DNA of 64,000 nucleotides, from contig KZ538211.1 in NCBI GenBank assembly GCA_000934665.2, forward strand, positions 1 through 64,000, read 5' to 3'. The translations under genes and the position numbers were made by a program. Each line of letters starts with the position of its first letter. The stretch's first letter is position 1. The notes below the pieces were generated by a model, which saw nothing but the letters and a program-made list of their open reading frames with translations, was not told where the DNA came from and searched no databases. This document shows, piece after piece, positions 16,393 to 64,000 of this stretch. This DNA is from Catajapyx aquilonaris. Lineage: Eukaryota.

Positions 16393-19300
16393 CTGTCGAG
16401 GGGACAAACAAAAAGCAATTACATGACAAGGTGACGGAAACCCTCGAGGAACATCATAGCTAGCTGGAAAGTAGCTCGAGAGCGCGGTAAACATGTCACT
16501 TGAAACGTTTGCTCGCATCTCCCCGCCCCCCTAGGGCCGTAACTCTGCCGGTTACAAAGTCGGCTCGTTATTCCACACTTGCCGTAACGGCACGATTTAC
16601 GTCATTACAATCCGGTAAGCATCCGGCGCCATAAACATCCGGAGGGCGTCGGACCTCACGACACTTCCGTCCCGGCCTTGTCACGTTTTCCCTGTACCTG
16701 TCCGCAATATACGTCACCAGGGCCTCCCTTTTTATTTGAACGGCCGGTACCGCATCGCCGTACACACATAATCCGACAAATAACGACCTCCCTGCATATG
16801 GCTTGTACAGCATATCTGATTGGGAGCAAGGTAAGCGCTGCAGGTGTTGGCTGTGTGAGCGTGTGTGTGTGTGTGTGGATGTGGCGTGGCTTAGAGAGGA
16901 AGGAGGGTGGGGGGAGCATGTGTATAAAGATGGCCGACCTGTGCGAAAAAGGTGGGAGAACTGGCTGGGCCTGTCTGAAATGAAGCGGTCAGCTGGCGGT
17001 CTTTGCCTAGCTTCAATCCTCTTACCAGGGCCATTTTGCCCCTCCCACCACCCAGAAGGTGGGGGGAAAGGGGAGGCGGAGTCCAAACACGATATATCTG
17101 CACACACACACACACACCACTCTCTCACCGCCACACCAGGTGATTCTCAAAACTAAAACTTCATTCCGAGACGAGGTAAAAACCGGCGGGTATAGGGTGC
17201 TTATCAAATCCATGGTGAATCATACACGTGGCGAATTATTAGAATGATTAATACTAATATTACTACCGCCATTAATAGGGAAATGGGCAGATCAGAAATT
17301 ATATGGCATCCATGGGCATCGGCAGAATCCCTGATGGGAAATGGAGGTGACTCGTGTGATTCCCAGTTTTCTGGTGGTAATCCCGTAATTACACGCGTTG
17401 CTGACCAAAGCTGGCCAATCACCTGACTGCACTCCATTTCTCTTTCGGGACATCTCTATATGGATTGGGAGTCACCCGACCAGCAGCAGCATCAGGGACA
17501 CGCCGAGAGTGGAGATTGGCGTCCGACAAAAATGTGTGTCCATCCGTGCTAATGCCGCATGCCAAAAAAAGAAAGAATAAAAGTGACTAACCATTTCTAT
17601 ATGTACGCAGCAGCAACATTTGATGAGCGACTAATTACACCTTGAATTAGTAACGCGGAATTCAGAGAAAGAGCTTGTGTAACTTTATACGGCCCATTTC
17701 AACTGGGTCACGCCGGCTAATCACGAATATTTGGACGGCTTAACCGACGTCAGCACCCACTTTAAACGACGCGTACAAAGTTGGACAACTCTCTGAATTC
17801 CGTCGCTACTGTGTAATCGGGTAATTTCATTATACAGGGTGGTGCACTGTACCCAGTTCAACAGATTCAACAATCCTATGACGAACAATTGCCTTTTTTC
17901 CCCAAAGGTCCAAAAAGTCCACCACATTCAAACCGCACGTTCCGAAGAAGATATTGCCAGATCATGACCCAAGAATCTGCACTCTCTGATGGCCACCGGC
18001 AACTGTGGCGCGCAATTTCGGACATCGGCCACACCTGGCCATCTTAAATTGTGGTCGGAGCGTGTTGGCAAGAAATCCCAGCAATCATGCGGGCCCAGCT
18101 TTCTTAATTGCCAAACGCGGAAGGCACCCCCCGTCCGCCATTGGAATATGAAAACTGACATCCCGGATGAAATATTAGGCGGGCGCTTATCTGGACCGCA
18201 GAAGCACCCAACAAAAAGGGGAAGCAGAAAAAAAAGCAATGGCCGAGCCTTGGTCAAACACGTTGAACTGATTGATCTCGCGGTGAATATGCAGGGAAGT
18301 AAAGGCATGTGAGAGAGAAAAAAAAAAGGGCTAAGTCGAGGGCACCAAACCCCCTCCATGCCTTCTTCGAAAAAAAGGATAAACCGGTCCTGAGAATCGG
18401 CTGGCATCTGTCATTACGCGCTTGCCATCAAGGCTCTTCAAGCTCAGGCTCGCGTTCCTTCGTGCTGCCCTCTCCTTTTTTCAACCTCGGTTCTGAAACC
18501 AACTCTGGTCAAGTGTGGGAGAGCACCACACACACACACACACCCAAAATTAAAACTGCGCTGCTTGTACCCCCTCGATTCCTCCCTAAAAAAAGTTTTG
18601 GGGCACCAACAACCAGCAACCTCTCAGGATGGGTCCCGTGCTTCCGGGCTCGAGTGAGTCATTACTGGAGGTTTCCAACTCGACGAGTACTGCTAAGCTC
18701 TTCACAACTTATCAAGCGTGCACTCATTTTTCGACTCAAAACACGATCCGGAATTTTTTCCCACCCGGTTTACGATTTACATGGTGAAAAAAAGTTCAGT
18801 CATTTGAATTGGCGTAGCCGCAATCCACCTGCTAAGTCCGCAGTTCGATCCCGTATAGGATTTCCATATCGAGGTGTCCCAGCATTAGCACGAGTGAGGA
18901 GTGACCCGTCAAGGAGAGTGTAACAAGGAAGCAGTATGTAGACATACAGGTTGGAGGGGACAGAGGCGTTGACATCACCTGGAAGAAAAGGGAAGGAAGG
19001 TGGGTGGGAAGGCACCCATCAGATGAGCCTGGGGGGACCTCCTCAGTTTACAATCCGATTTTTCACCCTGGGACAGAGTTATTAACTCGCGCTTCGGGAA
19101 GAACTGACGGCCCAGGTCCCTGCGGATCGAATAACAATGCGGGCCTCCAGAAAAGACGTGGGGGGTAGGGGGGGGGGAGGGGAAGAGGGCTTTTTCACCT
19201 TGTCAAAGATTACCGGGCCCCGATTTTTTGAGGTGGCAGGGATGTAGGGAGGACGAACCGAGTATGTAAAATAAGGTAATTTTTCCTGTCTCCCCCCATC

Positions 19301-22300
19301 GCTTCCAGGGGAATATCGAAAACGCCTCCGTGTCCCAGTTTATCGACACAGCATCTTATATTATTCTCCCATCCTTCCCCCCCTCTTTTATTCAGATATT
19401 CATCTCCGGGTGGCCCAACCTGCCAGGAGAATTGATCACCGGAGATTAATTATTCTTGGCGTGGCTTGGGCCTTACGGACAACAATGAACTTGCGGCGGG
19501 CGGGAGCCATCGGATTTATTAATTCGGGAAGGACGCATCGCCGGAATGCACCTGCGACGACGCTTCGTGTGTACTTTTGCAGCAGAATGTGTTGGTCGCA
19601 TGATTTCGGGTCCAGCCAAATAGCCAGACTGCTGGTACGGATCATGAGACCAATGGAGCGGCAAATTTGAGCTGAAGCATCATTTTGACGTGGTGCCAAA
19701 GCCAGCTCAGAGAAGATGCCGACTGGATAGTTTTTTATATCCGGAGGGAGTGGAGAGTGTATATAGTATCGGGGAAAATGGGTTGTTGAAGAGTGTGGTG
19801 GGCATGCATATTCACGGAAGAGTAGCTTCGGTCGTTAAAGAGCCCTCGGGTTTAATCTCGGGAGGATCGTTGACATAAGCGGGGAGAAGCGCCATCACTT
19901 TTTTCCCCCCTAGGCCTGTGCTGCAGCAGTGTGAGGTAAAAGTGTCTCCAGTGGGAGGGGAGGGAAGAAGAGGAAAACAATGTCGGTGCTTAGGGTAGTG
20001 GAAAAGTTTGGAGGATTGCTTTTTACCGGATGCAAGATGAGGAGGTGGCTGTGTTGTAAAAAGGAATGTGGGGTGGAGGCAAGCCAGTAAAGAGGGGGGG
20101 ACGAGGATGGCGGCAGGTAGCGAGACACCAATTCAATTAACTTTGACGTTGTCAGGCAAGAATTCGGCTTCTCCTCGTCGAGTGGGGCCGGTCGCAGCAG
20201 TGGAGGGAAAAGTGGTTTCCTGGCTGCAGGGATCAAAGGGGGGCCACACACACACACACCTGGGCCGGAGCACACAGCCTCCTATCCACCCACCAGCCGT
20301 TTATTTGCCTTTGTTGATGGCTGGGGAATTTTCCGCGACCTGGACACATTCACGCCGCAAATAGACACTCGCAGGCAGCCCGAGGGGACCCCCAGACCCC
20401 CGCGCTGCTCTCCGACGCCCAAAGACAACACTGGGCCGCCGCCACCGACGCAGACCCAGCCCGCAGCCTGATGCATTATCTCTCACACACACACAAGACA
20501 CGGACATCAACTATTCATCAGCCGACAGAAAGCAGCTCCCTCCCTACTTAGCACTTGGCGTAAAAACTAACGTCTGCTTGCCACTTGTGTATACATACAC
20601 CGACCAACGCAGCACTGCATACATGTCATTTGGCTGGCTTGGCGGCTCGTTACAGGATGCATAATTGTGTTCTCACGACGCCGTGGTTCATGCCCACTCG
20701 TGTTTATTGTGTGCCTGGGTTGGGCCAGCTTTGCTCCGGCACCCATCCATTTACAAGGAGACAATCACGAGCATTAACATTTGTACTTTTGCAGATGTGT
20801 TATACTCTCGAATCTTGGGAGGAGAAAAGAGGTATAATTTACCATTTTTCCCGATTTTTTTTTTGACGGGTACAATCGCGTGGGTAAAAGGTGCGCACGC
20901 GTGCATTATGAATAGGCCGTGCAAAGGAGGCCAACTGGACCCGAAACCCGAAATTGGAGGGGGGCAGGTCCACCCTTGTACACACACATCTGCTGCTCCG
21001 CGATTGGGAAAATTGCACTGTTCCTGTCATTAAACCGCGCTTTCTAAAACAAATATCAACCGTCGCTTGGCCTGCGAGGATGGCCGTAATTTTTAAAACG
21101 CAGCACCTCCAGTAATGCTAGTTATTTCGTCCTCACACCGCCTTCCGAGTGTAGACTGATGCACTTGAAAGAAACATGCACTCGACGGTTCAAGCGTTCT
21201 GTTACACAATGCCTGCGGTTACCTCGAAAATTCTCATTACGACTGCACCGCAAAATAGTGCTCCTTTCTTTCTCTTATATCACTCGACTCAGGTATGTAC
21301 TTGAACTTTGAAGGACCTTATGTTCAGAATGACCCGACAAATTGTTATAGCTGCAAAGACAATTCAGGTGTTAACTTTTCTGACTTGTAGCCTATAGAGT
21401 GGGCGCAGTATAGATCCATATGTGAATGAACTCATTGCACGTGTGTGTGCAAAGTGTACTAATATCACACACACCGAACCTGATGACGCGCAAGTGGCCA
21501 GCTTCCACGCGTTCCACAGCGTTCCCCTCACATTGCAAAACCAGCCAATATAAACAAAGTTGCGGCGCTGTTATCCGGCAATTGCCCGGAATAAAAGTTC
21601 CATGCAACGACGTCAGTATCGAAACACCCTAAATTCGGACAATTAGCTATCGGGTGTTGGGTGCACGTGATGAACTTGATATACAGGCATAGAAGCATGC
21701 CTGGTGGTCCGGGGAAAAGCTCCAGCTGGTGGTGGTGGTGCGAGGGGATGTTTTTCTCCATGATGGCCAGTTGCGTTCGGATGTGCGGGCTTGAGGTTTC
21801 CAGAAAGCGCAGTAACCGTCGGAGAGGATACTCAGCACCGACGCCACCGACGCCGCCCACTTGGAAATCCCCCGCCAACATTAGCCGGAATCCGAACCCG
21901 CCCGCGTTTGTCTTGCCCCCCTTTCCCATGCCCCCACTTTTAATCTGACTCCAGGGGAAAACGGCTGAGTAGTTAGACTCATTTTCGGCCTCCCGTGATG
22001 GCCGTAAACGACTTAGCTTACGCCAGGAACTTGCTACAAGGCCCTCCCACTCCTCCTCCTTCCTCCACCCCCTACTTGCCTCCCTCCGATTAAGTCCGGA
22101 TGATAAAGCGACAAAATTTTAATCAAGTGACATTATATGTGCGACGAGTTGCTTACAACTAAATGGCCGCCGGAATTTCAATTAAGACGGCATTGTGTCC
22201 TGAAAGGAGACGAATGGATGGTGCAACCTCTCACTTGGAGGAGGACCACTTCCCCTATTACTCCCGGGCTCCTGTCAGCGACGACTTTACTCTTATAAAT

Positions 22301-25300
22301 CACCGAGCTTACAATTGCACGCCGCCAATCGCAGCCCCCCCCCCCCTTTCTCCCGCCTTCCGTCTCTCTCGCTCTGTCCCAGCACCCTGTAGACATTAGC
22401 TCTGACACCTATTTGCACGGAGGTGACATCAAGGGCGAGCTAGTTCACTCCTAGTAACTTTGCCAAATTCTGCTCCGGCCGAGGAAGGACTGCCACGTTG
22501 CCTGACTCCGTCTTTGACCGTCCACAAAAAAAAGGGGGGCGAAATCTAATTACCGATTCAAGGAATCGGACTTTCCGACTAAGATACGTATACCACAGTC
22601 TCACAAATGACTTCCTGTGAAATTGCACGAGTAATTCTTCCTATATAAACGTATATAATTCACCTGGTTGCCCGACCACTCATATAGCCTATACTGAATA
22701 GTCAAAAATTGGAAAGATTCGGCGTGTACAATATGCTCGGGAGTATATAATTAATAGGTAACGAGAGGGTTTGTTCCTCAACATATTCCATTGCAAAAAT
22801 CCGAGTTTGACCGAGGAAACTCTGCAATTATCTGAAAAGCACCTGCGATAGCTTTACAAATAACGGAGCGCGTATCCTGCAATTCTGCATCGGAGGCGAA
22901 TGTTGTTATGCACGGCTATAGGAAACACGTATTCTGAGAAGAATGCTTGCTCACAAAAACAGCGAGTAATGAATCAGGCAGCTTTAGTTCCATCAGTTAG
23001 GGGAAAATACGATCGTTGCCCCCCCTCTCCTGGCTCGAATGGTGCTGGCCCCCTCCTGGCCCTTTCCCCTTCGGAGCGAATTGTCCCGGCACGATTGAAG
23101 CCAATAAGACCCGGCAACAAATGGGTGCTCTGGTGGCATGAAAGCCATCAGGGCCAACCAGGCATCAGATTCATGAAAACTGGCACCATCACGGCAGGCC
23201 ACGAACATGTCAAGTGGGCGTGCCTGCGGAAACACCATGCAGGGCCTTCAATCAGCTCGAGATCCTCCAGCACATACCATCATTTATACTGCGTATAAAT
23301 ACTGCAGTGCATAACGCGCATTACACGTCGACGTGTACGTGACGTGGTGTGCAACGGAAAGTGTAGGCAGAGGCACTGGAGAGATATCTTATATGGCTGG
23401 CCCATTTATTCCCGCCACACATCCACACATTGGCGGTGCAGCTGCAGCAGTAGCAGCCAGCAAAAGCCGAAGCCAATATGAGTCACAGCTGGCGAGGAAG
23501 CTCAGGCTAATGGCCCTTTTTGTCGGCCCTGTATGAGTCGTTCCAGTCAGGTGGAGGCTGGGTCGCCGAATAATGGCCCCAGACTCTCTGGCCTTTTCCT
23601 AACTCTCCCCATCCCCCACACCACCCCTCCCCCATTCCCACCTAGCCATAACCAGTGATCGGCATGTCATGCAAAATCAGACAACTAAGGCAATTAGACC
23701 CCTTCGGCTCCATCACGCTGCTACATATTTTTAAAGTCTCCAATCAGTCGAAAGCTGCCAAGTATTTCAATCTTCCACTCATTATGGTATTGCGACATTT
23801 TGGAAAAATCCTTTATATTGGATGACAGAACAATGGCTAAAGCAGCAATGCAGCAGCTTGAAAGCGAGTAAAGGCCAGCAGTGAGAAGGAGCTAAACCGG
23901 ATAAAAACTTCCTCGCATTTAAGTCTCGTTATCCGCGTGGTGGGAGGTGGGGGGAGAAGGGGGTGGCTGGGAAATTCCTCTGTTTTAAGGGCCACAAAAT
24001 GAAATCCACGCCTTCCCTCGCTCATTACACGGCCCCCTCCGGAACCATCATTTGGAAATTTGCGCGCACCGGATCTTGCAATCAGGCAAATTGGCGCAAG
24101 TAGTAACTGATAAAACTGCTAATCACGAAAATGGCCGATGACGAGAGCCGCGCAATGTGTGGTCCTCTCTCCATATAGTGGGAGGGAGGGGGGCCAAAAA
24201 GGAAAGGTTGTTAGGGCTGTCACTCAGGCAGGACCACTTTCATATGTATAATTAGGTGGTGGCAAGGTGGAAAGGTGGGTAGCACGCATGCAAAAGCAGC
24301 TGAGGCGTGGGGCCAATGACAAGTGGAGGAACGGTTGGCCACCACCGCTCCTCGCCCGCCTTTTCCACCAAGCTTGGCTCCTCCTCCGTCCTTCCTTCCT
24401 GCTCTCTTTGGACACACACACACTCACACAGCTAGCTATCCGAACACGCCATCACCACAGGGTGATTCGCAAACGACAATGCATGCCAAGAAGTTACAGA
24501 CTGTTTGCCCTCCAGCGGAAATCACAGCAAAGCTGAGCCATTTGCACAGCAGGACCAAGTCAACTAGACCAGGTCCACTATGTCGTTGCATTCCAACACT
24601 GATGGGCACTCTCGGGTCCCAACGGAATTCAACGATGCTGACACGCAGTCACTGGGTTAGCAGTGCCTGGCAACCAAATAATGGACCGGGTCCAGTTCAC
24701 TTGGTGCTGTGCAAATGGTCCGCAAGTGCATGCAGTCCCTAATTGTTGCTCCTCTGCTGCTGGGGTAATAACACGTCACTTCCTCCTCTTGAACCGAATA
24801 GGCGCAATGCAGAGCTGGGAACATGCACCTCGCATCAAAACCATTATACATGCTGCGTTTTGATTGGTATCTATACTCAGTTTGCACTAGTCGCTCACTT
24901 TGTGCGCCCATTCTGGCAGAAAGGATACGTCTTTCTTATCCTGGCTGTTGGAGCTCCATCAACTAAACATCTAGATTTGGGAGCCCAATGTAGTGGTCCT
25001 AAACCGAGCTGATACCTTCATTACGGAGCGGAGCGGCCATATTTTGAAAACATGATAGCCCCGGCCGCTTCGAATAAGTCCATTCAGCGCATGAGTTAAT
25101 TAGATCAGACGTCGCGATTAGTGGGCAGCTCCCAAAGGACCGTGAAGCAAAAGGAATATCCAGCTGCTGGTGGTACAACAAAAAAGAGATATAGAGCACG
25201 GCCGGTATAAAAATTTCCAGGTAATTAGGCTTTCCCCCGTGCTGTGGACGGACGTAAAAATCCCTCGGCAGCTTAGCAGGAATCCACACAGCAGATTAGC

Positions 25301-28300
25301 GTCCGCATTATTATTTTTTTTCCATAATCAACGGTGTTGACTGCCTGCCAGGAGACAGCAGGAGCAGCTCGTGCCAACCACCCAGTTTTTGACTCCAACA
25401 AACGTGCTCCCAGCAACCTGACTCTATATAAGGAAGAATCGCGTTAGCTCAGGTGATGAACACTAAAATGGAGACAATAAATTCGGATGATTGTTTCTCC
25501 GATTTCAAGTGGTTTCTGGAGTGAACAACCCTCTTAAACTCTGTTGAACTAGGAAAGAGCAGCACATTGCAAATACAGGAGAAGAAGTTGATTTTCATTC
25601 GCAGTGTCCCAGCAGAGCAGGGTTCTTGTCATTGGCAGCAGCAGAAAGTGGTCTGAACTTGGTGGCTGGCAAGGAACGAGCTCGAGATGGTTCCAATCCT
25701 GGCGGTTTATGGCAGCTCAAACTTGCGAAAACACCTCTTTAAGGACCGGACAACATCATCACATCCGCGACAAAGTGTACCCTGCTGGCCATCGACCAAA
25801 GTGTATCAAACTCTACCGGGGTCCTCAGTTATATAAGAAGAAAAAAAAGTGCGCTCTCGAGACCTTATATAAGTTAGCATCAGTTGGCGGAAATGTGTTG
25901 ATGCCGCTCCGCAGGGGAGGGGAGCGCAAATTTTTATTCATTTTTATATAAAAAGCGGCAATTTCATTAAGAACCGCACTTTTCCATAACAAAGGCGCGC
26001 ACTGACAGGAGACGACCATTTGCGAAATTATTATTCAGACTTTGAGGAAGCTCGGCGCAAAATAATCCCTTTTGAAAACATCATTCCGTTTGAACCAAAA
26101 TCGCTCCAGAGAGTTTTTATCCCCCCTCCTCCCATCACCTCGTTTTCCATTTTTGCCCGAGGCCCATGAATGCACAGCTCATTATTATACATTTATAAGC
26201 TGTCTAGGCAAAAGACAGCCGCATTATCATAAACTCCTCGCCCGTAACGTATAAATGTTAAAATAAATTAAAATGTTTCAGATATACACTCCCGATGAGA
26301 CCAACTGCTGCTGCCTCGGACACAATTCGTTTCAGCGGCCTTCGCAAAGTTTTTAATATTTGAGTTGCATCAATAAAGTCGAAATTTTTCCACATTTTAA
26401 GGCAAGAGCAAATAGTTCGGATATTTTGAACAAAGTCGTAGTTCTACTCGACTATTTCAACACGCTGTCAAACTCCTGGGCGATACTGCAGCCTGCAGAA
26501 TTGAATTTTACTTTGGAACACCATCCTCACTTTTCAATTAAATGTTATACAGTTGCTTGATGGTTCTGCTCGAGTTCAATCTAATTTTCACCTTCCAAAA
26601 GTTGGAATTAGCCGGCTTCTCTTATAGCCCGGGGGCAATATTGATTCCAGATCCAATTCGCTGGGTGTGCCATTTGCTTCAAGATTTCGGGGGAAGACAA
26701 AAAATAATACCATAAAATTCGATATTCAACTATGCCAGGGCATTATAAAGAGTTGCTCGATTGTGCACTAAAATTAAATTCCGAAAACAAGGGGCCCCGG
26801 CGTTATCATCAGCCGTGTAACAGGCTCGGTCATTAGAGGCCCGTGGGTACAATAAAGAGATAACGACATATTTGGCTTATTACAAATTATAATTATCGAG
26901 CAATAAACCATTACGAATGACCCCTCTAGAAAGTGGAACAAACGAGGGGGCTTGAATCAGGAATCAGCTGCATTCTAGGGGGAGAGAGAGACCTACCTAT
27001 ATATACGACCACCACCCTCACAACGTTATACACTGTTCTAAACTTGTCCTATGCAAATCAGTTTTATCCACAGTAGAACTTTTATGTATGTAGAAAATAA
27101 CCTTTCGCATTTTATTTTATTTTCTGAGCAGGTGTTCCCAAGTCGCAGGTTGGTGTCTCCCTGAATAACAGGTATAGAGGTGGGCACTAAACTTGGACCA
27201 CTATACAGTGCGGGCTAATAAATGACTCAGCTTTGAGGGGGAGCCTTTGAACGAGAAGGAACACTAAATATAAAAAATGGCAGCAGGGAGAATAAGGCTG
27301 GCCAAGTTGATGTTTCCAGGGAGACTCGTACAAACGGAAATGGAATCGGCGGTGCTTCCTCGGCCTAACACACAGAAAAAAAGAGAGAAGAGAGACAGAG
27401 CGAGAGGATCGGCACGTGACAAGCAGTTATACCGCGGTGCCCCGGTACAGGAGCCCCATCCACAGCGTACAATTCCAAAGTCCCTCGCGCGACATTTCTG
27501 CTGGTCCATCAGCCCAATCCCATCCGTCCCATCCATCTCGTGCCCGTCATGCTTTCCGGACTGATCCTCTCCCATCTCTCCAAGCATGCATTCACCTTGA
27601 TTAGGTCACCAAATGTATAGCTGGCTATGCGCCGGTCTACACGGGCTCACCACACATTCCTGTTTCAAGAGCACACGCTGCAAACCAAGCCATATTTCAA
27701 TTATTTTAATAGGAGCATCAATTAACGATCGAGTAAAAATTCCGGCTGCATGTACACGCACATAAATGCGTGTACGCTGCATACTAATGAATGGGCATCG
27801 ATTTGGGCGTAACAAAGTTATATGCACACACGTGCAGCCAGTTAAAAGGGAATGCGCAACGTGGGCTGCTGATACACAGCAAGAGATGAAAGTGCGGGCG
27901 GCATCAAATATTAAGCCCCTTGCTCTCCGTGTCCCCTAACATAATGTTTTACGCCGAAGGGGCGCAAATGAAGATAAATCCCAGGCGCTTGAACCGCTTT
28001 ATTGGGTTACGGCCCAGATCTCGGGACAAATAATTGAGCGAAATTAGCTCCTTTTCTGCTGCAGCAATAAGCCCCTAATCAGGCTCTGGAGTTACACACT
28101 ACTATTACCACTCGGCCTCCAACAGAGGTCGTGAATTATACGAGGGAGCGCCTTCGCAAGCACAAACTCGCAAAACATTGCCGTGCGGGAGAGGGAGGGG
28201 CCAGGCCAGATATGCCATCGCACACCAATTACGCACTTTTTTTGCTCTCATCCTCGGACAGCCAGCGCGCTAAATATTCCTCGGTTATAAATAACAAAAA

Positions 28301-40336: not shown

Positions 40337-40391
<55 letters not shown>
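40337..40391. repeat. (TC)27 microsatellite next to an ambiguous base
   Basis: Directly visible; n at 40399. Confidence 0.95.

Positions 40392-40394
<3 letters not shown>

Positions 40395-52071: not shown

Positions 52072-52073
<2 letters not shown>

Positions 52074-52102
<29 letters not shown>
52074..52102. repeat. (AC)14 microsatellite
   Basis: Directly visible. Confidence 0.95.
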
Positions 52103-52104
<2 letters not shown>

Positions 52105-52979
52105 CCTCCTTAATCAATCCCCCCCTCCAGGAGTAGTATCAGGGCTCGTTAAAACAGACCTCAATCTGAGATGGTGGGCCATAAAACATTAATTTGTATC
52201 AGTCAGGCGAGATTATCATCCAGCGCGGGACACAGCCATGTAAAACAATCGAAGCTGCTTATTTATTTTTCAGGATAGGTATCAGGAATGTCCAGTCCAG
52301 GATGTAATTGGGCCGCGGGGAGATATCTTCACTCGGTCATCTCTCCTCCCCCGTCCAGATTGGACAATATCCCCCCCGAGATCCAAGGACATGTTTTACG
52401 GCCAAAAAGGAGCTCCGAGTTAATTACGCTGACTTTGATGAAGGGACGCTCTTTTTCCAGCCCGGCGCTGACCAGTCCCTGCTGCCCCATCCCCCACAAA
52501 TATATATTTTTTTTGTTGAGAGAGCGGAGGTGATAGGAGTCAAAAAGCCAGGGCTTCGCGTGACTCCATTTATGAAAGTCCACTTCCTGGACGAGATAGA
52601 TTCGTCATTTGGTGGGATAATGAGAACTCGTGTGTCTGCTGCGTAACCCCCCCTCAAGACTGAGCAGGGGCTGAGGCTCCGACCGGGATGGAATGCAGGG
52701 ACAAACGAGGTGCGAAGAAATCCAGGGATGTCCGCGGGGTACACGTGTCCACGCCCTGGCCCAATCGATTTATTTTCACGCCCTTATCGCCGACAACTTC
52801 TCCAGTCAACAACAACAAAAAAACATACTGCCCGTTTTTTTGATCGCTAATGAGATGTTTATACAGCCGATTGTTTCAACTTTTCAATTCGCGGCTAACG
52901 ACGCTCACGAATGAAGAAGTGCTTGCTATACATACGTGTGATAAACACGGGGTTGATAAGCAATAAATCCTGGCCCCGC

Positions 52980-52993
52980 GTTGCCCCAGCAAC
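52980..52993. promoter_or_regulatory. RFX X-box GTTGCCCCAGCAAC
   Basis: Matches GTNRCC-N2-RGYAAC; lies ~9.4 kb upstream of the Toll ATG. Confidence 0.35.
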
Positions 52994-55900
52994 GCCTTTA
53001 TCCCCGGACACTCCTAACACTTCCTGGACGCGAGGCTCTAACGAGCATAAATCTTGGGGTCAACCAGAGCCAGCCATTAGGAAAACCTCGGCAAGTTTCC
53101 AAATCCTACCCCAACGCCTCCTGGTAGAAAATGCAGCCTGGCCTGTACCCCGTTCCCACTCTCTGTCTCCTAAGCCAACAAATAATCTTTTTCAATAAAA
53201 AAAAAACAGAAACCATCCGCGTTGCCTGCTTGAACGCATGCAATGTAGGTAAGTTGGCAGAGTTGAGCAAATAACGTGTCGTACCCGAGCATTCAAGTCG
53301 CCGGCATGTGGTACTGCCCTACTATAAAACGGCTTAAGAAAAACTGGCCTCGAAAAAAATATCATTGACTGATCCACATTCAGCAATAAATTGCTGGCCT
53401 TAAACCGATCAAACCTGTTCTCGAACATTCACTTCGCACACTAAGGAGATATCTGTACAATTAAGTTACTCCCAAGCATTGGAAAATAAAGGTTATGACG
53501 AGATTGAAAAGGAAGGTGGATAAGAAAGAAAGAAGTAGACAGGAGGGAGGGGGCTGTTGGAAAACAAACTGACCCAATACCACAAACTAGCCCATTACGT
53601 CTCCAAAAGCGAGAAAAACAAACCACTCGTTGGGGTGCAGTAAATCAGGGGTCCGGTTTTTCGGCGGGGGTATACAAAAACAGTAGAAAAAGAACGAAAA
53701 AGAGGTATCATTTTTTTCATCCCCCCCCCCCCCTCGCCAGCTCCTCTCATGCACCTTAGGGCCAGATGGGTGTTTTTCGGTTTTTCCAGCACAGAAGCTC
53801 CTGCCCTTGACACTGGCCTAAAGGAGTCCAAGCCCCTCTCAGGTGAGTGGGTGTCATGGAGACCTTCGCATCGTTCCATGGCTGCCTGGCACACTTGGAA
53901 ATAACCCAGCAGGGCTAAGATGCACAAAATTCACCTGGCATACACTGCCAATGACAAGTACGCAGGTAGTACTGTATTAAAGTACGGTGGATGTACATGG
54001 TCGGGGTGCATATTGTGGGGGAAGGGAGGGGGGACCCGACAACGAAGCGGCAACCATGGTTCTCCCTCCCCTTCCCACACCTGTCCGTCAAACTTCTCTT
54101 CCATATTACTTGATTTCCATCGCCCTTCTGATTCCAGGGAATTTGATTCGCTCCACTGACCTGCCATAATTTCCCTTTCCTCCTCAAGGGGGTGGAGGTG
54201 GGCAGCGCAACTGTTTCTAACAGAAAATTATTATTCTGTTGAACACGGTGCATGCACGCCTCGGCTGTCGAATAAAGAATAAAGAAAGAAAGAAAGAAAA
54301 AAAAATGCTTTTCCTCAATATGTTTTCTTCCCAAGAGTGTCCATCCAGCCAGAGAACAAAGCTCGGAACAAAGGTGGGAGATGGATATTTCTCGGACTCG
54401 TTGGAGCAGATAGAGCAGAGTTGTGGGCAGGTAAAAAGGTGGAGGTGATGGCGGTGGTGGTGAGGAGGTGGAGGAGGAGGCCACGACCGGTCTGCCCCCC
54501 GGCGGCAGGGCAACTAAGCACAATGCTGGGCCGAGGAAGGATTGCCCCGGGCGACAGGCAAGGGATACCTGCTGCAAGGGCGAAGGAAGCCACCCTTTGG
54601 GATTTGCTACCTATTCCTCAGCCCCCATTCAGAGAATAATTTGCCCATTTCCTAATGAAGCAAACCTCTCTCCGTGAAAAAAGGGTAATTCAATCACGTC
54701 TGTGCACTTGGCTCATTCCGCGCTTAACCGTGCAACTGGCACCGTTTAATTGCGGCCAATTATGACCTTAACGAGCTTTGTAAATGTCAGCGTCACATAC
54801 GCAAACAAAGGTTGTGCGTCACGCACCGGGAGATTCACGTGTCGGGGTCCAAACCACTGCCAACAGCCCAGAGATGCGTTACAGAATTTGCAGCAGTAAC
54901 ATTAAAAAAACTCAAACCTCAGAAAGCAAGGATTGGACAACAAAATCGGAAATGACCCCGGATCAGCTGGGGTCAGCTGATCTGATACCCCTCCAACCGC
55001 CTCCAACATTAAGGCACAGGTAAGCGTCCATAAGAACTAAAAGGTGGAGGACGGTCACACAAACACAGAGGGGCCGAGGCTCTAATGTGATAATGCATCA
55101 ATGCAAATGCAGGGTCATGACCCTGCCTTTTTTCCCCTCCCTCCCTCCCTCCTTCCCTCCCTGGTTATACGTAAAAATCCCCCCTGGCAAGCAGGCAAGC
55201 AAGCCAGGCACCAAATGCGATCCTTGCCCCTTCGCCCGTTCCAGTCGGTTGATGTTGGCAACCGTGTGGAGGAGGCGGGTTTGCCCTTGCTTGTTAGAGG
55301 AACCTGTGCAAGGGGCAGAGTTAGTCCGCGGCTCGCAACAACACAGGCTGGGTCGCGGCCACTGCTGCCAACAACAGCAACAATAACAACAACAACAAAG
55401 GCGAGGTGCAGACAGTGTGGCCGAGCTCTGGATATATTTTGCATGCGTGAGGAGGCTGCAACATGTGAGGGGGTGCAGGAGGCCGCCCCGGAAAGACATG
55501 GTGATGGTGGGCCCTCCGGATATTAGCGGCCATCGGAAAGGTGAAGGCCTCCAAAAAGGGAATAACGTGTGTTGGGAAGAAATAAAAGTGGCGTGGTGCA
55601 CTCGCGAGTGTGGGAAAAGGTGTGGCCGGCCATCAGTGCAGTGAAAGGCCGGGCCTTGCCAAGCAAGTGCGCTTTTTTTCGAAACAGTGCGGAGTTCCTT
55701 CCAGACCTTCACCCAAGGATTAGCTGGATTCAGAATATTATTACAGGTGAATTTAAGCATGGGGTTTAAGGCCATGGGCCTGGTTTGCAACACACATTCC
55801 ACCGGTTGCATTAGCACAAATTAAGCCAAATTTCCAGTTACGGATTCGCAATACGTAATCGGAGATGCGATACTAATTTGAGTTGACGCAACTGTGAAAT

Positions 55901-58900
55901 TCACTCAGCTTTCATATTTGCGCAGATTTGAAACGAATTAATTTAGTTTTGACGACGGATCAGGCTTAGGTCGAGTGGCCAGAATTGACCAACAGGACAA
56001 GAAACAAGTGGTGTGTAAGTGTGAAGGGCGGGGCGGATTTGTGTGTGTGCCAGTGTGAATGAATAAAATGCAATTTGGCGGCCTAGGCCCCGGTGTAGGA
56101 TCCCCGGCGAGAGCAGGGGGCTTTTGGGCCGACAGACACCTCGGGCTCCGGGTGCCATCAATCGTGAGGCCGGACGGAGAGACCCCGGGAGAAGGATCTA
56201 CCTTGACGCCCCTCTTGTCGTGCACAAATCGTGCGGATTCAAAACCCCCCAACTTGCCAACACCAGGCGGAATAATGAGAAAAGGGAGATGACGGCCAAA
56301 AACTCCCGGCCACATTGCGTCCAAAACGTCCAGAATTAATGCCCGATAATTCTAGAGTCACGCACTCGCTCTTCAACATTTTGCCAAGTTTCGCCTCCTT
56401 CCTTAGCCTCGGACTTTGAACTCGGTCTCATGTTTTCAGACCTAATAGGTGCAGAAGCGGATTTAAAAAAAGGAGAGCGGAGAAAATCCGTTTGTAACCG
56501 ATTATGAAACATGGCTGATTAAATGGAGATTACGGTTGCGGTATGCGAACATCATCGCGATTACTCGATTACGGCCAAACAAATTGGGCTTACACTAAAG
56601 GTCAATAGTAAGAGCACATTCTGCCAATTATATCGCAGCATTAAAAAAAAACCTGGACACTGAGCCGAGTAAATAACGGCAGGCTTGGTGCGAAATATTA
56701 CATCCTCTGATTAACGTTTTAGATGGTGTCAAGCTAAATTGAATTTCAATATTATTACTGATTCTTAATACTCGAGGCCAATTATTTGCAACTGCAACAT
56801 TTGTAACACGCAACTTAAAGCATAATTTAAGCTGTTCAAACCGGCAGCAGAGCTTACAGTGCACAACTGCACATGTCATTCACATCCAATGGCGCAGGGC
56901 ATGTAGTAACTTCATCCTTATCGCAATTAATTCGCACAGGCCGAACAATTTCGGGGTGTTTCTAATGACTCGCAAATGGCCACCAAGCACCGATATTAGC
57001 ATTAACTTCCAGTTATCTGATGCATAGGTTTCATCCGTCGAGGGCAAAATGTCATCGGACTCGGACTCGCAAAGCACAACTGTGCATATTCACGTAAAAC
57101 AAGCACGAAACGTGCATAACGGTGCAGCCTAACGTCAGCGAGACGCACATGCAACGCATAAATTTTCACATGAATACCGAGTTGGAGAGACAGATATATG
57201 GCAGGGCGAGGCGGATGTGTTCGGTCCTTCAGAGAGAAAAAAGTTGAAGCGAGTCTGTTTATAAACAAGTGATGGTGTACTTGCATGTGTTGGACCCACA
57301 TAACACGAGGCTTCACATATCCTATACACAGTGTTAAAAGATTATGGAGCTCGTTCGTTGGAAGGCCTCGACTCGCCCAGCATATGGCGCGAGGCTAGGC
57401 CTAATACTTCCCCGCACAAAATATATCGTTCTGGGGCGAAATCTACGCCCAACTTTGTTAATTGAGAATCATACATGGCGTTAGTTCTGGTGCACATGCT
57501 TTTAAATTACTGCACCATATGTTTAGCCTGTGTGTTTGGGATTGGTCAGAAAGTGGGTGGCACAGTTGCGGACACTCTCACAGACAGCAGTCCAAAGCTG
57601 ATTGAAAATGTCCGGGCCTTGCGACTTGAAACTACTTAGAGAATGTAGCACGTCATGAATGTTACTCATACACGTTATTGCTAGTTTTAATGCTATTTAA
57701 AAATGCTCGTCTAGAACGGCAATAAATACATGCGCGTAAAAATAAAATAGCGTAACAGTATTCAATCCCCTCCTCTGGCCCAGAATCTGCAAGAATATTT
57801 ATCAAGTGAGAAGCTGCTTCCTCGTCTGCTGGAGGTTTTTCATGCTAATCATGCATGCAAATATCCACCATCAATGAATAAAAATGAATGAAATCAAGCG
57901 CGCCTCTAAATCTGCCACTTACACGAATGGTTTTTTAGCGTACACTTTCCAATAATTGAAGGTTGGACGGTTTTTAAAAATCCCTGCACTTTTGATACTT
58001 TCGCCGAGATATGCCAGAAAAAGGGGTGCAGTTCAGTGATGCTAGAATGCGGGAAATTAGCTTCTTCCAAATTGGGACCGCTCACATTTTTGTAGCAAAG
58101 CTTTAACCCCAATCAAAGTTCCTCCGCTTTCCCAAATATGATTTTTGATGATTATTTTTTCCCATTCACTACTTCAACAGTAAGAAAAGGTGGACATTTT
58201 GATAGGCCTAATATTCCTCAACATAAAATAAACTTCGGACATGTGCAAAAATAGGTGGGAGTTTTTGAGGCAATGCGCCTATTTAAGGAGGCCTCCCAAG
58301 ACTTATCAGTAGCTCCTACCAAAAGAAGCAATTATATATTAACTGAATTCACGTATGATTCTGAAGTGCTCACATATCAATAGGTTACACAGTGGACCCG
58401 AAATAACGAGAGAACTCAGGGAATATGGAATTGCACGAATTTAACACCGGCGTCTACTATTTATTTATTTATTTATTTCAAGCAATGTCCGTGAACACAC
58501 CCAATAAAGTTTGCGACCCACAAAATTTGCAAACCGAATTCGTTGATGAATCATTCGCCCTCTCTGCATATTATTTTGATTTGCTCCCTTTGCCACCAGC
58601 ACACTATACCGTATGTATAATCAATCTCACACGGAATAAAAAAATATATGAACTGCCTAATTTGCCAATTGTGCTCGTTCAAATCCCTCACGATTAAATG
58701 TCCAAGACGTACCTAAGTCAAGCCGACAGGCCGCGCATCCTATTCAGTTCTATACCATAAACATTGAGTCATCTAGAGTGCCTGTCACCTGACCCCCATG
58801 TCCCCGAAAGTACAGAGTCGAACTGCTTGTCGAAAGCCATTGTCGTCGGAATCCGTCTTTCATTTTGCTAGTAACAAACGAGTTAGTTGCAGTATGAGAG

Positions 58901-59314
58901 GGGGTCTCTGCCAGAGATAATTTCCTGAGACCTGTGACCAGCATATAGGTGGTCATTTCGACATAGGAGACACCCAGTGAATAGCCTGTGGTGTGTACAT
59001 GAGCACCAGATAATAGAATGCAACGAGGTCTCCCCCCATTTTCCATTCCCGTTAGGGCAATAGGTTTAAAAGTGCATCAGTTGTGCAACAAGGCCAAGAG
59101 CTGTGGTGTGATGGCGGCTGGCCAGGGCTCTTGCATTTTTCCAAGACCGGCACACCTTAACAAGGAGGGAGCGAGAGAGAGGGAAAGATGGGATGGAGGG
59201 GAGGAGAGGGGTGAGTGGGGGCACAGGAGATGGGGTAGGGGGCGCCATAGGTGAGGAGATTCCCTCCCTGGGAAAGGTCACTCACATCGTTCCCGCTGGA
59301 ATCTCGTAGCAATG

Positions 59315-59347
<33 letters not shown>

Positions 59348-59372
59348 AGCTAGCAGGCAAGCAAGCAAGCAA
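59315..59372. repeat. Compound (AGCC)8 / (GCAA)4 microsatellite
   Basis: Directly visible. Confidence 0.9.
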
Positions 59373-62322
59373 GGCTGCCTTCGCTTTAGCCTTGCCTGCA
59401 CAGCCAGAAAAAGGTGGAGGAGGCTGAGAGATGCTGATGCTGGAGGTGCTTGCATAGCAGTCAAGAGAGATGGGGGTGGGATAGGAGAAGGGGGGCATCG
59501 GCGGCTCTCTTTCTTGGCAAGCGAAACGGATCTGGAGCCTACTTGGTGCTGCAGCAGCATCAGGCTTGGAGGCCGATGAAAGCACCATCACAGCCATTAT
59601 ATCACGTGACAGGGGCTCCCAGGCCCTGCTCTTCACCCATTTTTCATGCCTTCCGAATAACCGACTTCAACTTTTAATTGAAATATTTTCTCCGGGGACG
59701 GATTCTTCGCACCCGCCATGCTCATTCCTCTCTCGCCTGTCTCAAGGTAGGGGGTTCACAAGCATGCTGCAGGAATGGTTTTTTTTCTTTTCTTTTTTTC
59801 TCCACGCTTTTTGGCAGCGAGGTTCACCCAATTGGCTTACTACCACTCGCAGCTCGTACAGCTAGCCAATGGGGTGCTTCTCGCTGCCAAAAAGCGGGGC
59901 GAGAGCGAGTTTCTCACGAGATTGTGAACACCCTTTGATATTATTACGAATCAATTCCTTCCATTGCATAGGGAAAAAATTACGCCAAAATCCTACCCAT
60001 TTCGGTTAGGCCTACGTCCACCTCATACACGCAATATCGCAACGAGCTCGCGTAAATATAGTGATCTTTCTCATTGCCATGTTAACTGAATGGTCAGAAA
60101 CCGCAACGTATATTACGACTTGCCATATTAATACCACGAACAACGTAAAAAAAAGGCAATTCAAAATGATGTCATTTCCGACTGTATTATACATCCACTC
60201 TATAAATCGAATGCCTTTTAACCTATAGGTTTTGAAATGTATTTCAAGTACCGGTACGTAATATTGAAATAAACATATGGTTTAGCTGCGCTATATGATT
60301 ATTTATTGTGCAGATTATTTCCAATATTATCAGATGGAATAATGACGAGCAGTATTTTTATATTCGCCAGAATATCCGCACATGCAAGTTTGGAAATCAA
60401 TAATTTCTGCATTTATTTAAACCAGAATTGCAACATAAAGCACTAGTAATCATGCATAATTTGCATTTAAAATTTTGATGTTTACGGTATAGTGTCTCCA
60501 CATTATATAGCCGCATAAACTTTACATTTAATAAGTGTGCGAACTACGTTCGGTGGCAATTTTAATTTGAAAAATTGCAAATTCACGATATTCGAAACTA
60601 CGTTTTTGCAATTCCATAATCGATAATTGCTTGGCATACATTATTTGGAGTAACTATTGTTGAAAATTATCGGCTAAACCGATCCTTTGGTTAGCATCAT
60701 TTCTTGCAGTAGTTTACCCCGTGAATTAGTGTAAGTGAAGTTAAGGCAAGTCTTAATAAGCTATTGGGTTCCTAAATATCACATGACATGTCAGTAGTGC
60801 AACTGGCCACCATGTACTAAAGCGACCTAAAATCAACCGGATCGCATCACATATTAAGACCAGTGCAGATGAGCAGCAACGCAATTAATATACGTCCCAT
60901 CCTAGATGAGTTGTTTGGCCATGCCGGCTGCTTAAATGGGGGATAAATAAATCTGCCCCTCCTGTTATAAGTCTAAGCGCACGCAGGAGAATAACTCCAG
61001 CAACACGCAATTTTTTGACGCAATAAAAAAAATGAAATAGTGTGCAGCAGGATTTGACCCCGGTCTCCAGGGTTGGAATTAGCATAGAGAGGCGCCTGGT
61101 GGCTGGCAAATTGCGAGGATTTGTGCGATGCAACAGGCGACGAAGAAGTTTTGCTTCCTAGACACTCCCAACACATTACAGCTTAAGGGAGGAGGTGTGC
61201 GTGCGTGAGTATATATATCTCTGCGAGCAAGCCAATCAATTTAGTCCAGATGCCATTAGTTACGTCTTCCGATAAAAACCGGCCCCTCTCCCCGCTCCGC
61301 CACCTTTCCCAACTTCCCTCTTCTCAATTTGCACGTGTGTGTGTGTGTGGTACTTTATGATGTTCTTGAGGTAATCCATTGGCGTGGAGGATGAAGCTGT
61401 AGGACGGCACATTCCTCTTCCCCGCACCCTTTCCACGGGTCGCACACAAATCCATCCATTGGATAAGTCACGCCCGTTATATCAGGCTTCCCTATAACGA
61501 ATATGCCTTACGTGACTGGCGACTTGTGAATGGCTCTCCCCCTCGCCAGCAGCTATACACATGCTGCAGTATACACTAGCTGGCTGCCCCTTTCCAGACG
61601 CAGGCAGCACTTGGACCAATTAACGCGGGGGCCTAAAACACATTAGTCTGAATTACGGCTCAGGCAGCATTCGCCCAATAAGCAAATCTTCTTTTGGCAC
61701 GGCGGCCATGCAAATCGAGGAGGGTAGGTGGAATTAAATCGGGATTTTTTCCCCTCTAAAAAAGGAGACTATTGGAGATTGTTTTTCAGGAGGCCCTAGA
61801 GGCACACGAGGCAGAAAACGGACGCACATTGCTCCATACGTCCCTTAATTATGGCGTTAATTAGTGGCACAGCTGCATTCGCTGGCAAGAAGTTTGAATT
61901 GATAGCGAGAGCAGACTCTAAACGACGCGAGGCAAACGGAAAATGATTTCAAATCGGGAGCCAAGTTGGCGTCCGTCTCAACATTAGCTGTAGTCAAGAT
62001 AACGTTTAATGGGTGCTGCACTGCCTAAATCCAAAGCCGAAGAGAATGGAGGATAAGATACATAAAATAATGTATAGAGAGTAACTTTCCTTCCATCCTA
62101 CTCGGCTTTGGATTTGGGCAATGGAAATGCTTTCAATATGAGAATGTGTCGATTATTATTTCATCCCTGCAATGACACCCCTAATGGACAGATGATCCTA
62201 ATCAGGCAATGCTGCTTGTAGCTCTTCTTATATTGGCTGATTTGCATGATATGCCCAACGGGGGTGTCACAGTTGAACGTCCTTGAACTTGTGTGATCAG
62301 AAACTAGTATTAAAATAATAAT

Positions 62323-62353
62323 GCGTGTTTTGTGTTTGGTGTGCGTGTTGCAG
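62323..62353 (+). promoter_or_regulatory. Probable splice acceptor of a 5' UTR intron of the Toll gene
   Basis: gcgtgttttgtgtttggtgtgcgtgttgcag|G lies 83 nt before the ATG, where AT-rich sequence switches to GC-rich sequence. Confidence 0.55.
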
Positions 62354-62363
62354 GGTTGGTGCA

Positions 62364-62440
62364 ATGGGACTGGTGCAGGGTTGCAGCTGATGGGCAGCAG
62401 CATCAGAGGCCGCACTGGCCCCGAGCATAGGAGGAGATGA
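62364..62440 (+). promoter_or_regulatory. Two chained uORFs in the Toll leader (62364-62390, 8 aa; 62390-62440, 16 aa)
   Basis: uORF1 MGLVQGCS* ends in TGATG, which starts uORF2 MGSSIRGRTGPEHRRR*. The uORF2 TGA overlaps the main start in ATGA. Confidence 0.55.
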
Positions 62441-64000
62441 AGCGGAGAGCGGCGGCGGCGGCGGCCCGAGTGCTGGCGGCCATCCTCGCCTGCCTGGTCG
62501 CCACTTCTTCTTCCTCCCCGTCCTCGGGGGGCTCCGCGCTGGAGGACTGCAGGTGGCTATCCAGCATCGACGTCGGGGTCGTCCGAGGCGCCGGTGCTGG
62601 GGGAGGTGGAGGAGGCGGAGGCGGAGGCGGTGGGGGCCTGGAGTGCCGGCTGAGAACCCTGCACGGCCACATCTCCAGCGCCAACCTGTCCTCGCAGCAG
62701 CATTACCAACAGTTCAGCGGTGTGGCCCTGTCCGAGCGCCTCTTCTCCCTCAGACTCGAGTGCAACGACCAGCTCTTCTTCGAGAGCTACCTGGAGGCAC
62801 GCACCTTCCGTGACCTGGTCCAGCTCCGACACCTTGACCTCGAGTACTGCAAGATCGCCCGTCTACCCTCGCAGGCCTTCCACTCCCTCACCTCCTTGAA
62901 GCACCTGTCCATCCGAACCCACAACACCGACTGGCCCGCCATCGCCCTCGAGGCAGACCCAGGAGCTTTCGACCAGCTGCTCAGCCTAGAGAGGTTGGAC
63001 CTCAGCTTCAACAACATCTGGACCTTGCCCGAGGACATCTTCTGCCCGCTCAGGAGTCTCCGGTACATCAACCTGACCCAGAACCGGCTCCAGGACATCG
63101 AGATGCTGGGATTCACCAGGGGGTCGCTGACCCCGGAGTGGAAGAGGTCGAACACCGGGTGCGGAAACAACATGAGGGTGCTGGACATGGGGTTCAACAG
63201 CCTAGAGACTGTTCCCCCGGAAGCCTTGGGAACACTGAGCCGCCTGGAGGAGCTGTACCTGGAGAACAATGTCATCTCCAGCCTTCCAGACAGGGCCCTG
63301 GTAGGACTCGAGTCCCTCAGGATCATCAATCTATCCGGGAACAAGCTAGTCAACCTGCCTCCCGAACTGTTCGAAGCCACGAGGGGCGTCAAGGAGATCC
63401 ACCTGCAGAACAATTCCCTTACGGTGCTGGCCCCGGGCCTGTTCGAGGGCCTGGACCAGCTCCTGGTGCTCGACCTGTCCAAAAACGAGCTGACCAGCGA
63501 GTGGGTCAATTCAGAGACCTTCAACGGCCTGCTCAGGCTGGTGGTTCTCAACCTGTCCCAAAACCGACTCTCCCGCCTAGACTCCGCCATATTCCGAAAC
63601 CTGTACAGCCTCCAAATCCTGAGACTAAACAACAACGAGATCAACAGCATAAGCGACAACTCCTTTGGTTCCATGAGCAACCTCCACACCTTGATCCTGT
63701 CCCACAACCAGCTGCTGACCGTGGACGCCAGCACCCTGAACGGCCTGCAGGTTCTGAGCCTCCTCTCCCTGGACAACAACGCCATCGAGTCCATCCATCC
63801 GATGGCTTTCCGGAACTGTTCCAACCTGCAGGATCTGAATCTGAGCGGGAACAACCTGTTCCAAGTCCCCGTGGCCCTGCAGGACCTGCAGCTTCTCAAG
63901 ACGCTGGACCTCGGGGAGAACCATATATCCAACGTGGAGAACGTCTCCTTTAGCCGCATGCAGCACCTGTACGGCCTACGACTCATTGACAACAGGATAG
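62437..64000 (+). CDS. Tollo: Long-LRR Toll receptor, Tollo/Toll-8-like (Toll-2/6/7/8 'Long Toll' group); N-terminal 521 codons, truncated by the window end
   Basis: My translation (absent from the ORF track because it has no stop in the window): signal peptide MKRRAAAAAARVLAAILACLVATSSS, Cys cap CRW...LECRLRTL, then LECNDQLFFES, LEYCKI, LSIRTHNTDWP, LDLSFNNIWTLPEDIFCPL, LTSEWVNSETFNGLLRLVVLNLS, LKTLDLGENHI, LYGLRLIDN with repeated LxxLxLxxN units. In-frame TAG 9 nt upstream of the ATG; no intron in 1.56 kb. Tollo versus Toll-6/7 is from motif recall; TM and TIR domains are not visible. Confidence 0.9.
   Translation, partial: MKRRAAAAAARVLAAILACLVATSSSSPSSGGSALEDCRWLSSIDVGVVRGAGAGGGGGGGGGGGGGLECRLRTLHGHISSANLSSQQHYQQFSGVALSERLFSLRLECNDQLFFESYLEARTFRDLVQLRHLDLEYCKIARLPSQAFHSLTSLKHLSIRTHNTDWPAIALEADPGAFDQLLSLERLDLSFNNIWTLPEDIFCPLRSLRYINLTQNRLQDIEMLGFTRGSLTPEWKRSNTGCGNNMRVLDMGFNSLETVPPEALGTLSRLEELYLENNVISSLPDRALVGLESLRIINLSGNKLVNLPPELFEATRGVKEIHLQNNSLTVLAPGLFEGLDQLLVLDLSKNELTSEWVNSETFNGLLRLVVLNLSQNRLSRLDSAIFRNLYSLQILRLNNNEINSISDNSFGSMSNLHTLILSHNQLLTVDASTLNGLQVLSLLSLDNNAIESIHPMAFRNCSNLQDLNLSGNNLFQVPVALQDLQLLKTLDLGENHISNVENVSFSRMQHLYGLRLIDNRI

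Follow-up and report, generated by a model that had tools for sequence, protein, structure and literature searches.

A Tollo-like Toll receptor gene probably nested antisense in a giant LSD1/KDM1A intron of Catajapyx aquilonaris

Analysis of a 64,000-nucleotide stretch of the Catajapyx aquilonaris genome (assembly GCA_000934665.2, contig KZ538211.1, positions 1 to 64,000 of the forward strand; hereafter the window) showed two genes on opposite strands: the C-terminal half of the chromatin-enzyme gene LSD1/KDM1A on the minus strand, and the beginning of a long Toll receptor gene with leucine-rich repeats (LRRs), Tollo-like by its best matches, on the plus strand. The Toll gene most likely lies antisense within an LSD1 intron of more than 47.6 kilobases (kb). 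LSD1 and Tollo were also found as neighbours in ten insect annotation sets, and the pairing looks like an old, conserved host-nested pair rather than an oddity of this genome, as far as sequence and annotation records can tell.

Four open reading frame (ORF) pieces on the minus strand, between positions 16453 and 13823, encoded the C-terminal half of LSD1/KDM1A (Table 1). The Pfam family Amino_oxidase (PF01593) was matched by all four exon translations (E = 6e-06, 1.2e-15, 8e-20 and 5.8e-07), which together covered profile positions 200–442 of 443. Compared with human proteins, exon C scored 198.6 bits against the KDM1A chains (E = 1.8e-58), 64.4 bits against KDM1B (E = 7.3e-17) and 56.3 bits against spermine oxidase, and its identity to the best arthropod LSD1 matches was 86–89%. 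The flavin amine-oxidase domain was nearer to KDM1A than to KDM1B or the polyamine oxidases, which indicates a probable orthologue of LSD1/KDM1A (Su(var)3-3). When joined, exons A–D gave a stop-free frame of 332 codons with 85–88% identity to several hemimetabolous insect LSD1s. The intron lengths of 78, 1026 and 465 nucleotides (nt) that a first-pass annotation of this sequence had given were exact by splice-site reading, with GT..AG borders in each case. At the upstream edge of the block, a pyrimidine-rich acceptor (...ttgtttgtcccctcgacag) closed at 16393, the final base of the long intron. Exon A opened inside a Val codon, of which it holds the last two bases, and must therefore be spliced to an upstream exon.

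Transcript-like contigs covered part of the block. One contig of run X5 joined position 14093 to 14559 (13846–14093 plus 14559–14668), with the 465-nt intron spliced out, and others covered 12791–13401 and 13588–13873. The kind of run X5 (share 0.21) is not on record; it was taken as RNA-like since one of its contigs holds the spliced joint. Exons A and B had zero cover in this run, which is hence silent on the upstream partner of exon A. Some 2.3 kb beyond the LSD1 stop, 527 uninterrupted T were present at 11026–11552 of the plus strand, equivalent to poly(A) on the LSD1 strand; the run may be genuine or may have arisen during assembly. Downstream of LSD1, positions 1–13500 of the window contained no recognisable gene and no Pfam match among the scanned ORFs of at least 100 amino acids (aa).

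Table 1. Features of the two genes and of the DNA between them, with window positions and the evidence for each.
Feature	Positions	Strand	Evidence or remark
LSD1 3' untranslated region, part seen in transcript-like contigs	12791..13822	-	run X5 contigs
LSD1 stop codon	13825-13823	-	within exon D
LSD1/KDM1A exon D (last coding)	13823..14094	-	Amino_oxidase match; acceptor AG at 14096-14095; X5 joint
465-nt intron	14095..14559	-	GT..AG; skipped in X5 contig
LSD1 exon C	14560..14898	-	PF01593, E 8e-20; KDM1A chains, E 1.8e-58
1026-nt intron	14899..15924	-	GT..AG splice sites
43-nt tandem repeat, 2.7 copies, with three CTCF-core-like sites in one orientation	15800..15913	+	inside the 1026-nt intron, beside exon B
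LSD1 exon B	15925..16161	-	PF01593, E 1.2e-15; splice sites
78-nt intron	16162..16239	-	GT..AG splice sites
LSD1 exon A	16240..16392	-	translation; profile positions 490-545
Giant LSD1 intron, visible part	16393..64000	-	at least 47,608 nt; 5' end past the window
Unique non-coding DNA from exon A to the Toll start codon, presumed Toll upstream/regulatory	16393..62436		Pfam, Rfam and repeat scans
Long-LRR Toll (Tollo/Toll-8-like) ORF, first 521 codons	62437..63999	+	uninterrupted; open at the window end

The exons upstream of exon A were sought by two methods across the whole window. With tblastn (E threshold up to 10), nine full-length arthropod and annelid LSD1 proteins matched the known exon block alone, with matches beginning at query residues ~446–535; the other high-scoring segment pairs had E values of 0.025 or above. 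A profile hidden Markov model (HMM) of 18 full-length LSD1 proteins, run with hmmsearch --max against 3106 six-frame segments of at least 10 aa, gave 4 matches, which spanned profile positions 490–775 of 782. For profile positions 1–489 nothing credible appeared in the window, the next best hits having E values of 0.67 (on the wrong strand) and 2.5. Neither method found the SWIRM, N-terminal oxidase or Tower exons in the 64-kb window.

If an upstream exon had been missed inside 16393–62436, the intron would be shorter and the Toll gene would sit outside LSD1, on its upstream side. Exons that are very short or divergent may evade such searches, and a weak minus-strand match recurred at 30912–30977 (E 2.5–7). 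However, the exon preceding exon A should encode ...WDQDDDFEFTGSHLT, a stretch nearly invariant across the LSD1 proteins compared, and because this stretch is so conserved, the exon should not be missed; the highly conserved ...LKHWDQDDDFEFTGSHLT, identical or nearly so in the same proteins, was found by neither tblastn nor hmmsearch. The match at 30.9 kb was rejected because its translation is unrelated; as an exon it would supply residues ~257–274, yet no exons for residues 275–490 stand between it and exon A. The chance of a missed exon is accordingly next to negligible in our judgement. Given that no LSD1 exon for residues 1 to ~490 was present in the window, the visible intron measures at least 47,608 nt (16393–64000). 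Because LSD1 runs towards lower coordinates and the stretch from exon A to the Toll start holds none of its upstream exons, these are expected past the Toll start. The intron of more than 47.6 kb proposed in the first-pass annotation was thus borne out by both searches, neither of which recovered the overlooked upstream exon in 16393–62400 that would have refuted it.

The Toll ORF extended over 62431–63999 of the plus strand, with a Met at 62437 and an open 3' end. As described earlier from the sequence alone, it runs opposite to LSD1 and is unbroken as far as visible. The Met at 62437 was followed by a hydrophobic N-terminal leader and then by LRRs (LRR_8, E = 6e-68, seven stretches within the 523 aa of the ORF), the combination of a signal peptide with a long LRR array. 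The visible part amounts to 521 of approximately 1250–1290 codons, or about the first 40% of the coding sequence. Homologues of 1200–1300 aa carry a TIR domain (PF01582, PF13676), and the window ends before the transmembrane and TIR region.

The database proteins best matching the Toll ORF were named Tollo or Toll-8 (47–57% identity), and the ORF was colinear with residues 26–476 of the 1284-aa Tollo-like protein L9F63_005436 of Diploptera at 56% identity. Its score was 578 bits against the Anabrus Tollo vs. 518 bits against the Anabrus toll-like receptor 6. Identity to the pterygote Tollo proteins was low throughout, which points to a lineage not close to any annotated insect. In a quick maximum-likelihood (ML) tree of 30 rows, the Tolls neighbouring LSD1 in Laodelphax, Diploptera, Danaus and Rhynchophorus shared a single Tollo clade (SH-aLRT 100). 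The same tree weighs against a firm Tollo assignment of the fragment, which branched without clear order alongside the Tollo clade and an Anabrus/Ignelater pair, whose Anabrus member is named toll-like receptor 6; the branch of the fragment was long (0.81), and it filled 39% of the alignment columns. The earlier label Tollo-like was hence upheld by the best matches, whereas the tree left the fragment near both Tollo and the Anabrus 'Toll-6'. Linkage to LSD1, as seen for the Tollo genes of other insects, favours Tollo for the Toll gene of the window. The evidence as a whole favours a Tollo-like gene on its best matches and shared LSD1 neighbourhood, and not on a resolved tree. The Periplaneta protein named Tollo (P0220, 1414 aa) fell into another Toll clade of the tree, for which reason its accession numbers were left out of the neighbourhood comparison.

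The Toll ORF, on the plus strand, reads away from exon A and opposite to the minus-strand LSD1 exons. Since the upstream LSD1 exon is expected beyond the Toll start, the Toll gene would be positioned antisense inside the LSD1 intron, and we regard such nesting as likely in this genome.

A microsynteny survey across arthropod genomes had been proposed along with the nesting; the comparison made here drew on insect annotation records and returned an LSD1–Tollo neighbourhood in ten annotation sets spanning five insect orders (Table 2). The spacing between the two genes was 1–7 locus tags or accession numbers in nine of these sets and 9 in Neodiprion lecontei. In Laodelphax striatellus, the order of tags was LSD1-N, one tag, Toll-8, one tag, LSD1-C, such that the parts of the host flank the Toll gene, and this Toll-8 (LSTR008172) clustered with the Toll-8 of Nilaparvata. 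An 811-aa protein from Logan transcripts spanned both Laodelphax LSD1 halves (99.8% identity to LSTR008170 and 99.4% to LSTR008174) and read across the junction, and a 777-aa Logan protein likewise joined two LSD1 fragments of Rhodnius. As these two proteins cover both halves, the LSD1 halves belong to one mRNA. The locus tags of the Cryptotermes LSD1 halves, B7P43_G09327 and B7P43_G09331, differ by four. A genomic regulatory block consists of a developmental target gene and bystander genes that interleaved enhancers hold together. Linkage kept over a long evolutionary distance is a feature of such blocks, and it was found for LSD1 and Tollo. In Drosophila melanogaster, to our knowledge, Tollo does not lie within Su(var)3-3.

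Table 2. Insect annotation sets in which LSD1 and Tollo/Toll-8 are neighbours.
Annotation set	LSD1	Tollo/Toll-8	Remark
Laodelphax striatellus	LSD1-N LSTR008170; LSD1-C LSTR008174	Toll-8 LSTR008172	all three on 2,235,989-nt contigs
Diploptera punctata	LSD1-C L9F63_005433	L9F63_005436	
Rhynchophorus ferrugineus	GWI33_016385	GWI33_016392	320,902-nt contig
Danaus plexippus	OWR44349	OWR44348	
Danaus chrysippus	CAG9562576	CAG9562577	
Colias eurytheme	CAG4930704	CAG4930700	
Brassicogethes aeneus	CAH0552810	CAH0552815	
Neodiprion, set 1	XP_046424091.1	XP_046424090.1	consecutive numbers
Neodiprion, set 2	XP_046480497.1	XP_046480496.1	consecutive numbers
Neodiprion lecontei	XP_015514778.2	XP_015514787.2	9 apart

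Many LSD1 gene models were broken at the position of this intron. Of 120 proteins listed as LSD1 matches, 9 were short models starting at ...(V)RNGYSCVP (from Diploptera, Cryptotermes, Coptotermes, Zootermopsis, Homalodisca, Anabrus, Rhodnius, Lycorma and Cephus). In a second list of 120 proteins, which was restricted to lengths of 197–629 aa and thus enriched in fragments by design, 45 ended at ...FTGSHLT followed by a short unrelated tail. These 45 came from, among others, springtails, a damselfly, a mayfly, cockroaches, stick insects, bugs, wasps, ants, bees, beetles, moths and a sandfly, with Collembola, Odonata, Ephemeroptera, Blattodea, Hemiptera, Hymenoptera, Coleoptera and Lepidoptera among the orders represented. 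Tails of 34 aa were alike in a Periplaneta RefSeq isoform and a transcript-derived Logan protein (P0248 and P0252, from two blattodeans), which hints at a real truncated LSD1 isoform with an alternative last exon inside this intron. The short tails following ...GSHLT were also sought in the window, with nothing above noise (best E 0.02). In the Homalodisca vitripennis gene models P0004 and P0243, the exon-A peptide was repeated several times in tandem, suggesting that the 3' edge of this intron has undergone local exon duplication or was repeated in the assembly.

Several points weigh against nesting in this genome and against its generality. The window holds the 3' host exons only, the 5' LSD1 exons and the 3' end of the Toll gene being past its end. 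Of the antisense nesting as originally proposed, the geometry stood and the same layout or adjacency was recovered in other insects, while a direct view of the enclosing exons lay beyond the sequence at hand. In the relatives, neighbourhood was judged by locus tags, accession numbers and contig sizes as proxies, rather than by coordinates and strands. A complete 792-aa LSD1 of Neocloeon triangulifer was located on a 20.0-Mb contig and its Tollo on an 11.7-Mb contig; since the two genes are on different contigs, LSD1–Tollo linkage has exceptions. In the fragmented assemblies of Ephemera danica and Microctonus aethiopoides, LSD1 and Tollo are likewise on different contigs. Finally, Anabrus simplex has a 389-aa C-terminal LSD1 on the Tollo chromosome together with an 851-aa full-length LSD1 on another contig, the two copies (P0043 and P0244) being 96.4% identical over 358 residues. 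Extra partial LSD1 copies can therefore exist; the Anabrus pair may reflect a duplicate, a haplotig or a scaffold placed wrongly.

The Anabrus case bears directly on the possibility that the four exons of the window are a truncated 3' duplicate of LSD1 that lies 46 kb from the Toll gene by chance, with a working LSD1 elsewhere and no nesting. The presence of the LSD1 3' block alone in the window would agree with such a duplicate, as would the coexistence of a C-terminal fragment and a full-length gene in Anabrus. On the other hand, the 332-codon frame is intact, has 85–88% identity to other LSD1s and canonical splice sites, and carries a good acceptor at its 5' edge, while the last LSD1 intron is spliced in the transcript-like X5 contig. 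A single 26-kb contig of run X1, possibly the source of the assembly, passed unbranched through the exons, which argues against a second near-identical copy. Moreover, the layout of a C-terminal block followed by Tollo recurs in Diploptera and Laodelphax, and the Laodelphax halves are joined in the 811-aa product. We therefore consider a truncated duplicate improbable.

The same DNA reads bear on an assembly misjoin within 16393–62436, in which case the LSD1 3' block and the Toll gene would not be true neighbours. The X1 contig (25,994 nt) spanned 12001–32000 with no differing letters; run X1 may itself be the source of the assembly, so that this contig does not count as independent support. 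Read-derived contigs were compared over 12001–32000 alone, and single N's were present at 37525 and 40399, both of which leave some room for a misjoin. Yet the interval contains no long N gap, the sole long N run of the window being the 78 nt at 5232–5309, and a misjoin would have to re-create by chance the LSD1–Tollo neighbourhood of ten other annotation sets. A misjoin is for these reasons very improbable in our estimation, and nesting of the Toll gene within the LSD1 intron is retained as the likely arrangement.

The 46 kb between exon A and the Toll start codon appeared to be unique and non-coding. Outside the LSD1 and Toll genes, the whole window contained 122 ORFs of at least 100 aa, of which 115 were scanned after dropping six within a T homopolymer (10950–11679) and one across an N run (5127–5648); none of the 115 gave a Pfam match. 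Rfam at gathering thresholds returned no matches in the window, and the internal repeats of the whole window were limited to two short ones. Two long minus-strand ORFs, at 53918–54610 (231 aa) and 55101–55820 (240 aa), lie close together; neither had a Pfam match, and their translations look non-coding.

Two further elements of the first-pass annotation concerned the handling and the bounds of this intron. It had been thought to be removed by recursive splicing, but no recursive-splicing sites (a pyrimidine tract followed by AG and GTRAGT) were found on either strand of 16393–62436, with 0.07 expected from 100 first-order Markov simulations; the motif was the one known from Drosophila work, and the scan covered the intron up to the Toll start rather than past 64000. 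The proposal hence gained no support in this interval. The arrangement had also been thought to be bounded by a CTCF-like cluster. Three candidate sites do exist at 15800–15913, but they are located inside the 1026-nt intron, and the window-wide count of AGRKGGCGC was 5 vs. a shuffle mean of 1.99, with 5 of 100 shuffles reaching 5, which is not clearly above chance. A boundary role for the putative cluster is possible.

In the nested arrangement, LSD1 and the Toll gene would be independent transcription units. Polymerases transcribing LSD1 would traverse the Toll gene and the 46 kb upstream of it in antisense, and the whole stretch would be spliced out as one intron. The 46 kb would most likely constitute the promoter and enhancer landscape of the Toll gene. 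Two reasons may account for the persistence of the pair: any single breakpoint parting the Toll gene from LSD1 would cut an essential host gene, and the Toll enhancers are probably interleaved with the host intron in the style of a genomic regulatory block. A regulatory reading of the arrangement is plausible. It is like a genomic regulatory block in that a patterning receptor gene lies at or in a chromatin-enzyme gene, the linkage extends over five orders, and a long unique upstream stretch occupies the intron of the bystander. It differs from an established block in that LSD1–Tollo is known from linkage and sequence, and the integrity of LSD1 could by itself hold the pair together.

The latter would amount to passive persistence, in which the Toll gene is nested but retained because an essential host is hard to disrupt, the 46 kb being mostly neutral DNA of no regulatory meaning. 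The Neocloeon data, which suggest that the pair can be separated, speak for it. Against it, the interval is unique and devoid of transposon-like ORFs or repeats, as would fit a constrained landscape, although this is a weak argument that depends on the genome-wide repeat load. We hold passive persistence to be a tentative but substantial possibility.

The pairing may be compared with known nested genes and Toll loci. The closest parallel is 2mit, an LRR transmembrane receptor gene located antisense in an intron of timeless2 (tim2); this nesting is kept in 21 of 21 Drosophila species and in Apis mellifera, but not in the 4 Lepidoptera examined there, and 2mit has an intron (PMC3786989). LSD1–Tollo resembles tim2/2mit as an opposite-strand LRR receptor gene that probably lies in an intron of a large chromosome-related housekeeping gene. 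It differs in the genes concerned, LSD1 and a member of the TIR-bearing Toll family, and in the adjacency of LSD1 and Tollo in the lepidopterans Danaus and Colias. The Toll gene of the window shares with Tollo/Toll-8 and the other long Tolls (Loto) a long LRR ectodomain and, as far as visible, an uninterrupted coding sequence. The TOLL8 copies of Culex are likewise given as single-exon genes (10.1101/2024.09.12.612760). In the portions available of PMC8609888 and 10.1101/2024.09.12.612760, no LSD1 or host gene is mentioned for Toll genes, and those of PMC5850136 do not refer to an LSD1–Toll pairing. Our literature searches found no description of an LSD1–Toll pairing, in agreement with the first-pass annotation, which knew of none; the supplementary synteny tables of microsynteny papers could list it. 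Nested genes and conserved microsynteny blocks are already well known, and the LSD1–Tollo pairing itself is apparently undescribed.

A more far-reaching reading is that LSD1 and Tollo have been paired since the origin of hexapods, or perhaps longer, and act together as a single regulatory unit, with Tollo enhancers filling the intron, transcription of LSD1 running head-on through Tollo, and regulated production of a truncated LSD1. As part of the same claim, the truncated protein would comprise the SWIRM domain, the N-terminal oxidase part and the Tower and would be devoid of the C-terminal oxidase half; it would arise via an alternative terminal exon or intronic polyadenylation. We regard this joint claim as doubtful. 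If true, it would couple the output of the chromatin enzyme and of the patterning receptor mechanically.

The nested arrangement would place a receptor gene of embryonic patterning and neuronal function inside the gene of a core chromatin enzyme, and the pairing appears to have been held across insect orders separated hundreds of millions of years ago. For annotation, many insect gene sets carry LSD1 as two 'genes' on account of the giant intron, and these models need merging. LSD1–Tollo may also serve as a natural case for studying whether gene pairs are kept by interleaved enhancers or by the need of the host to stay whole, and how antisense read-through from a housekeeping gene affects a patterned gene.

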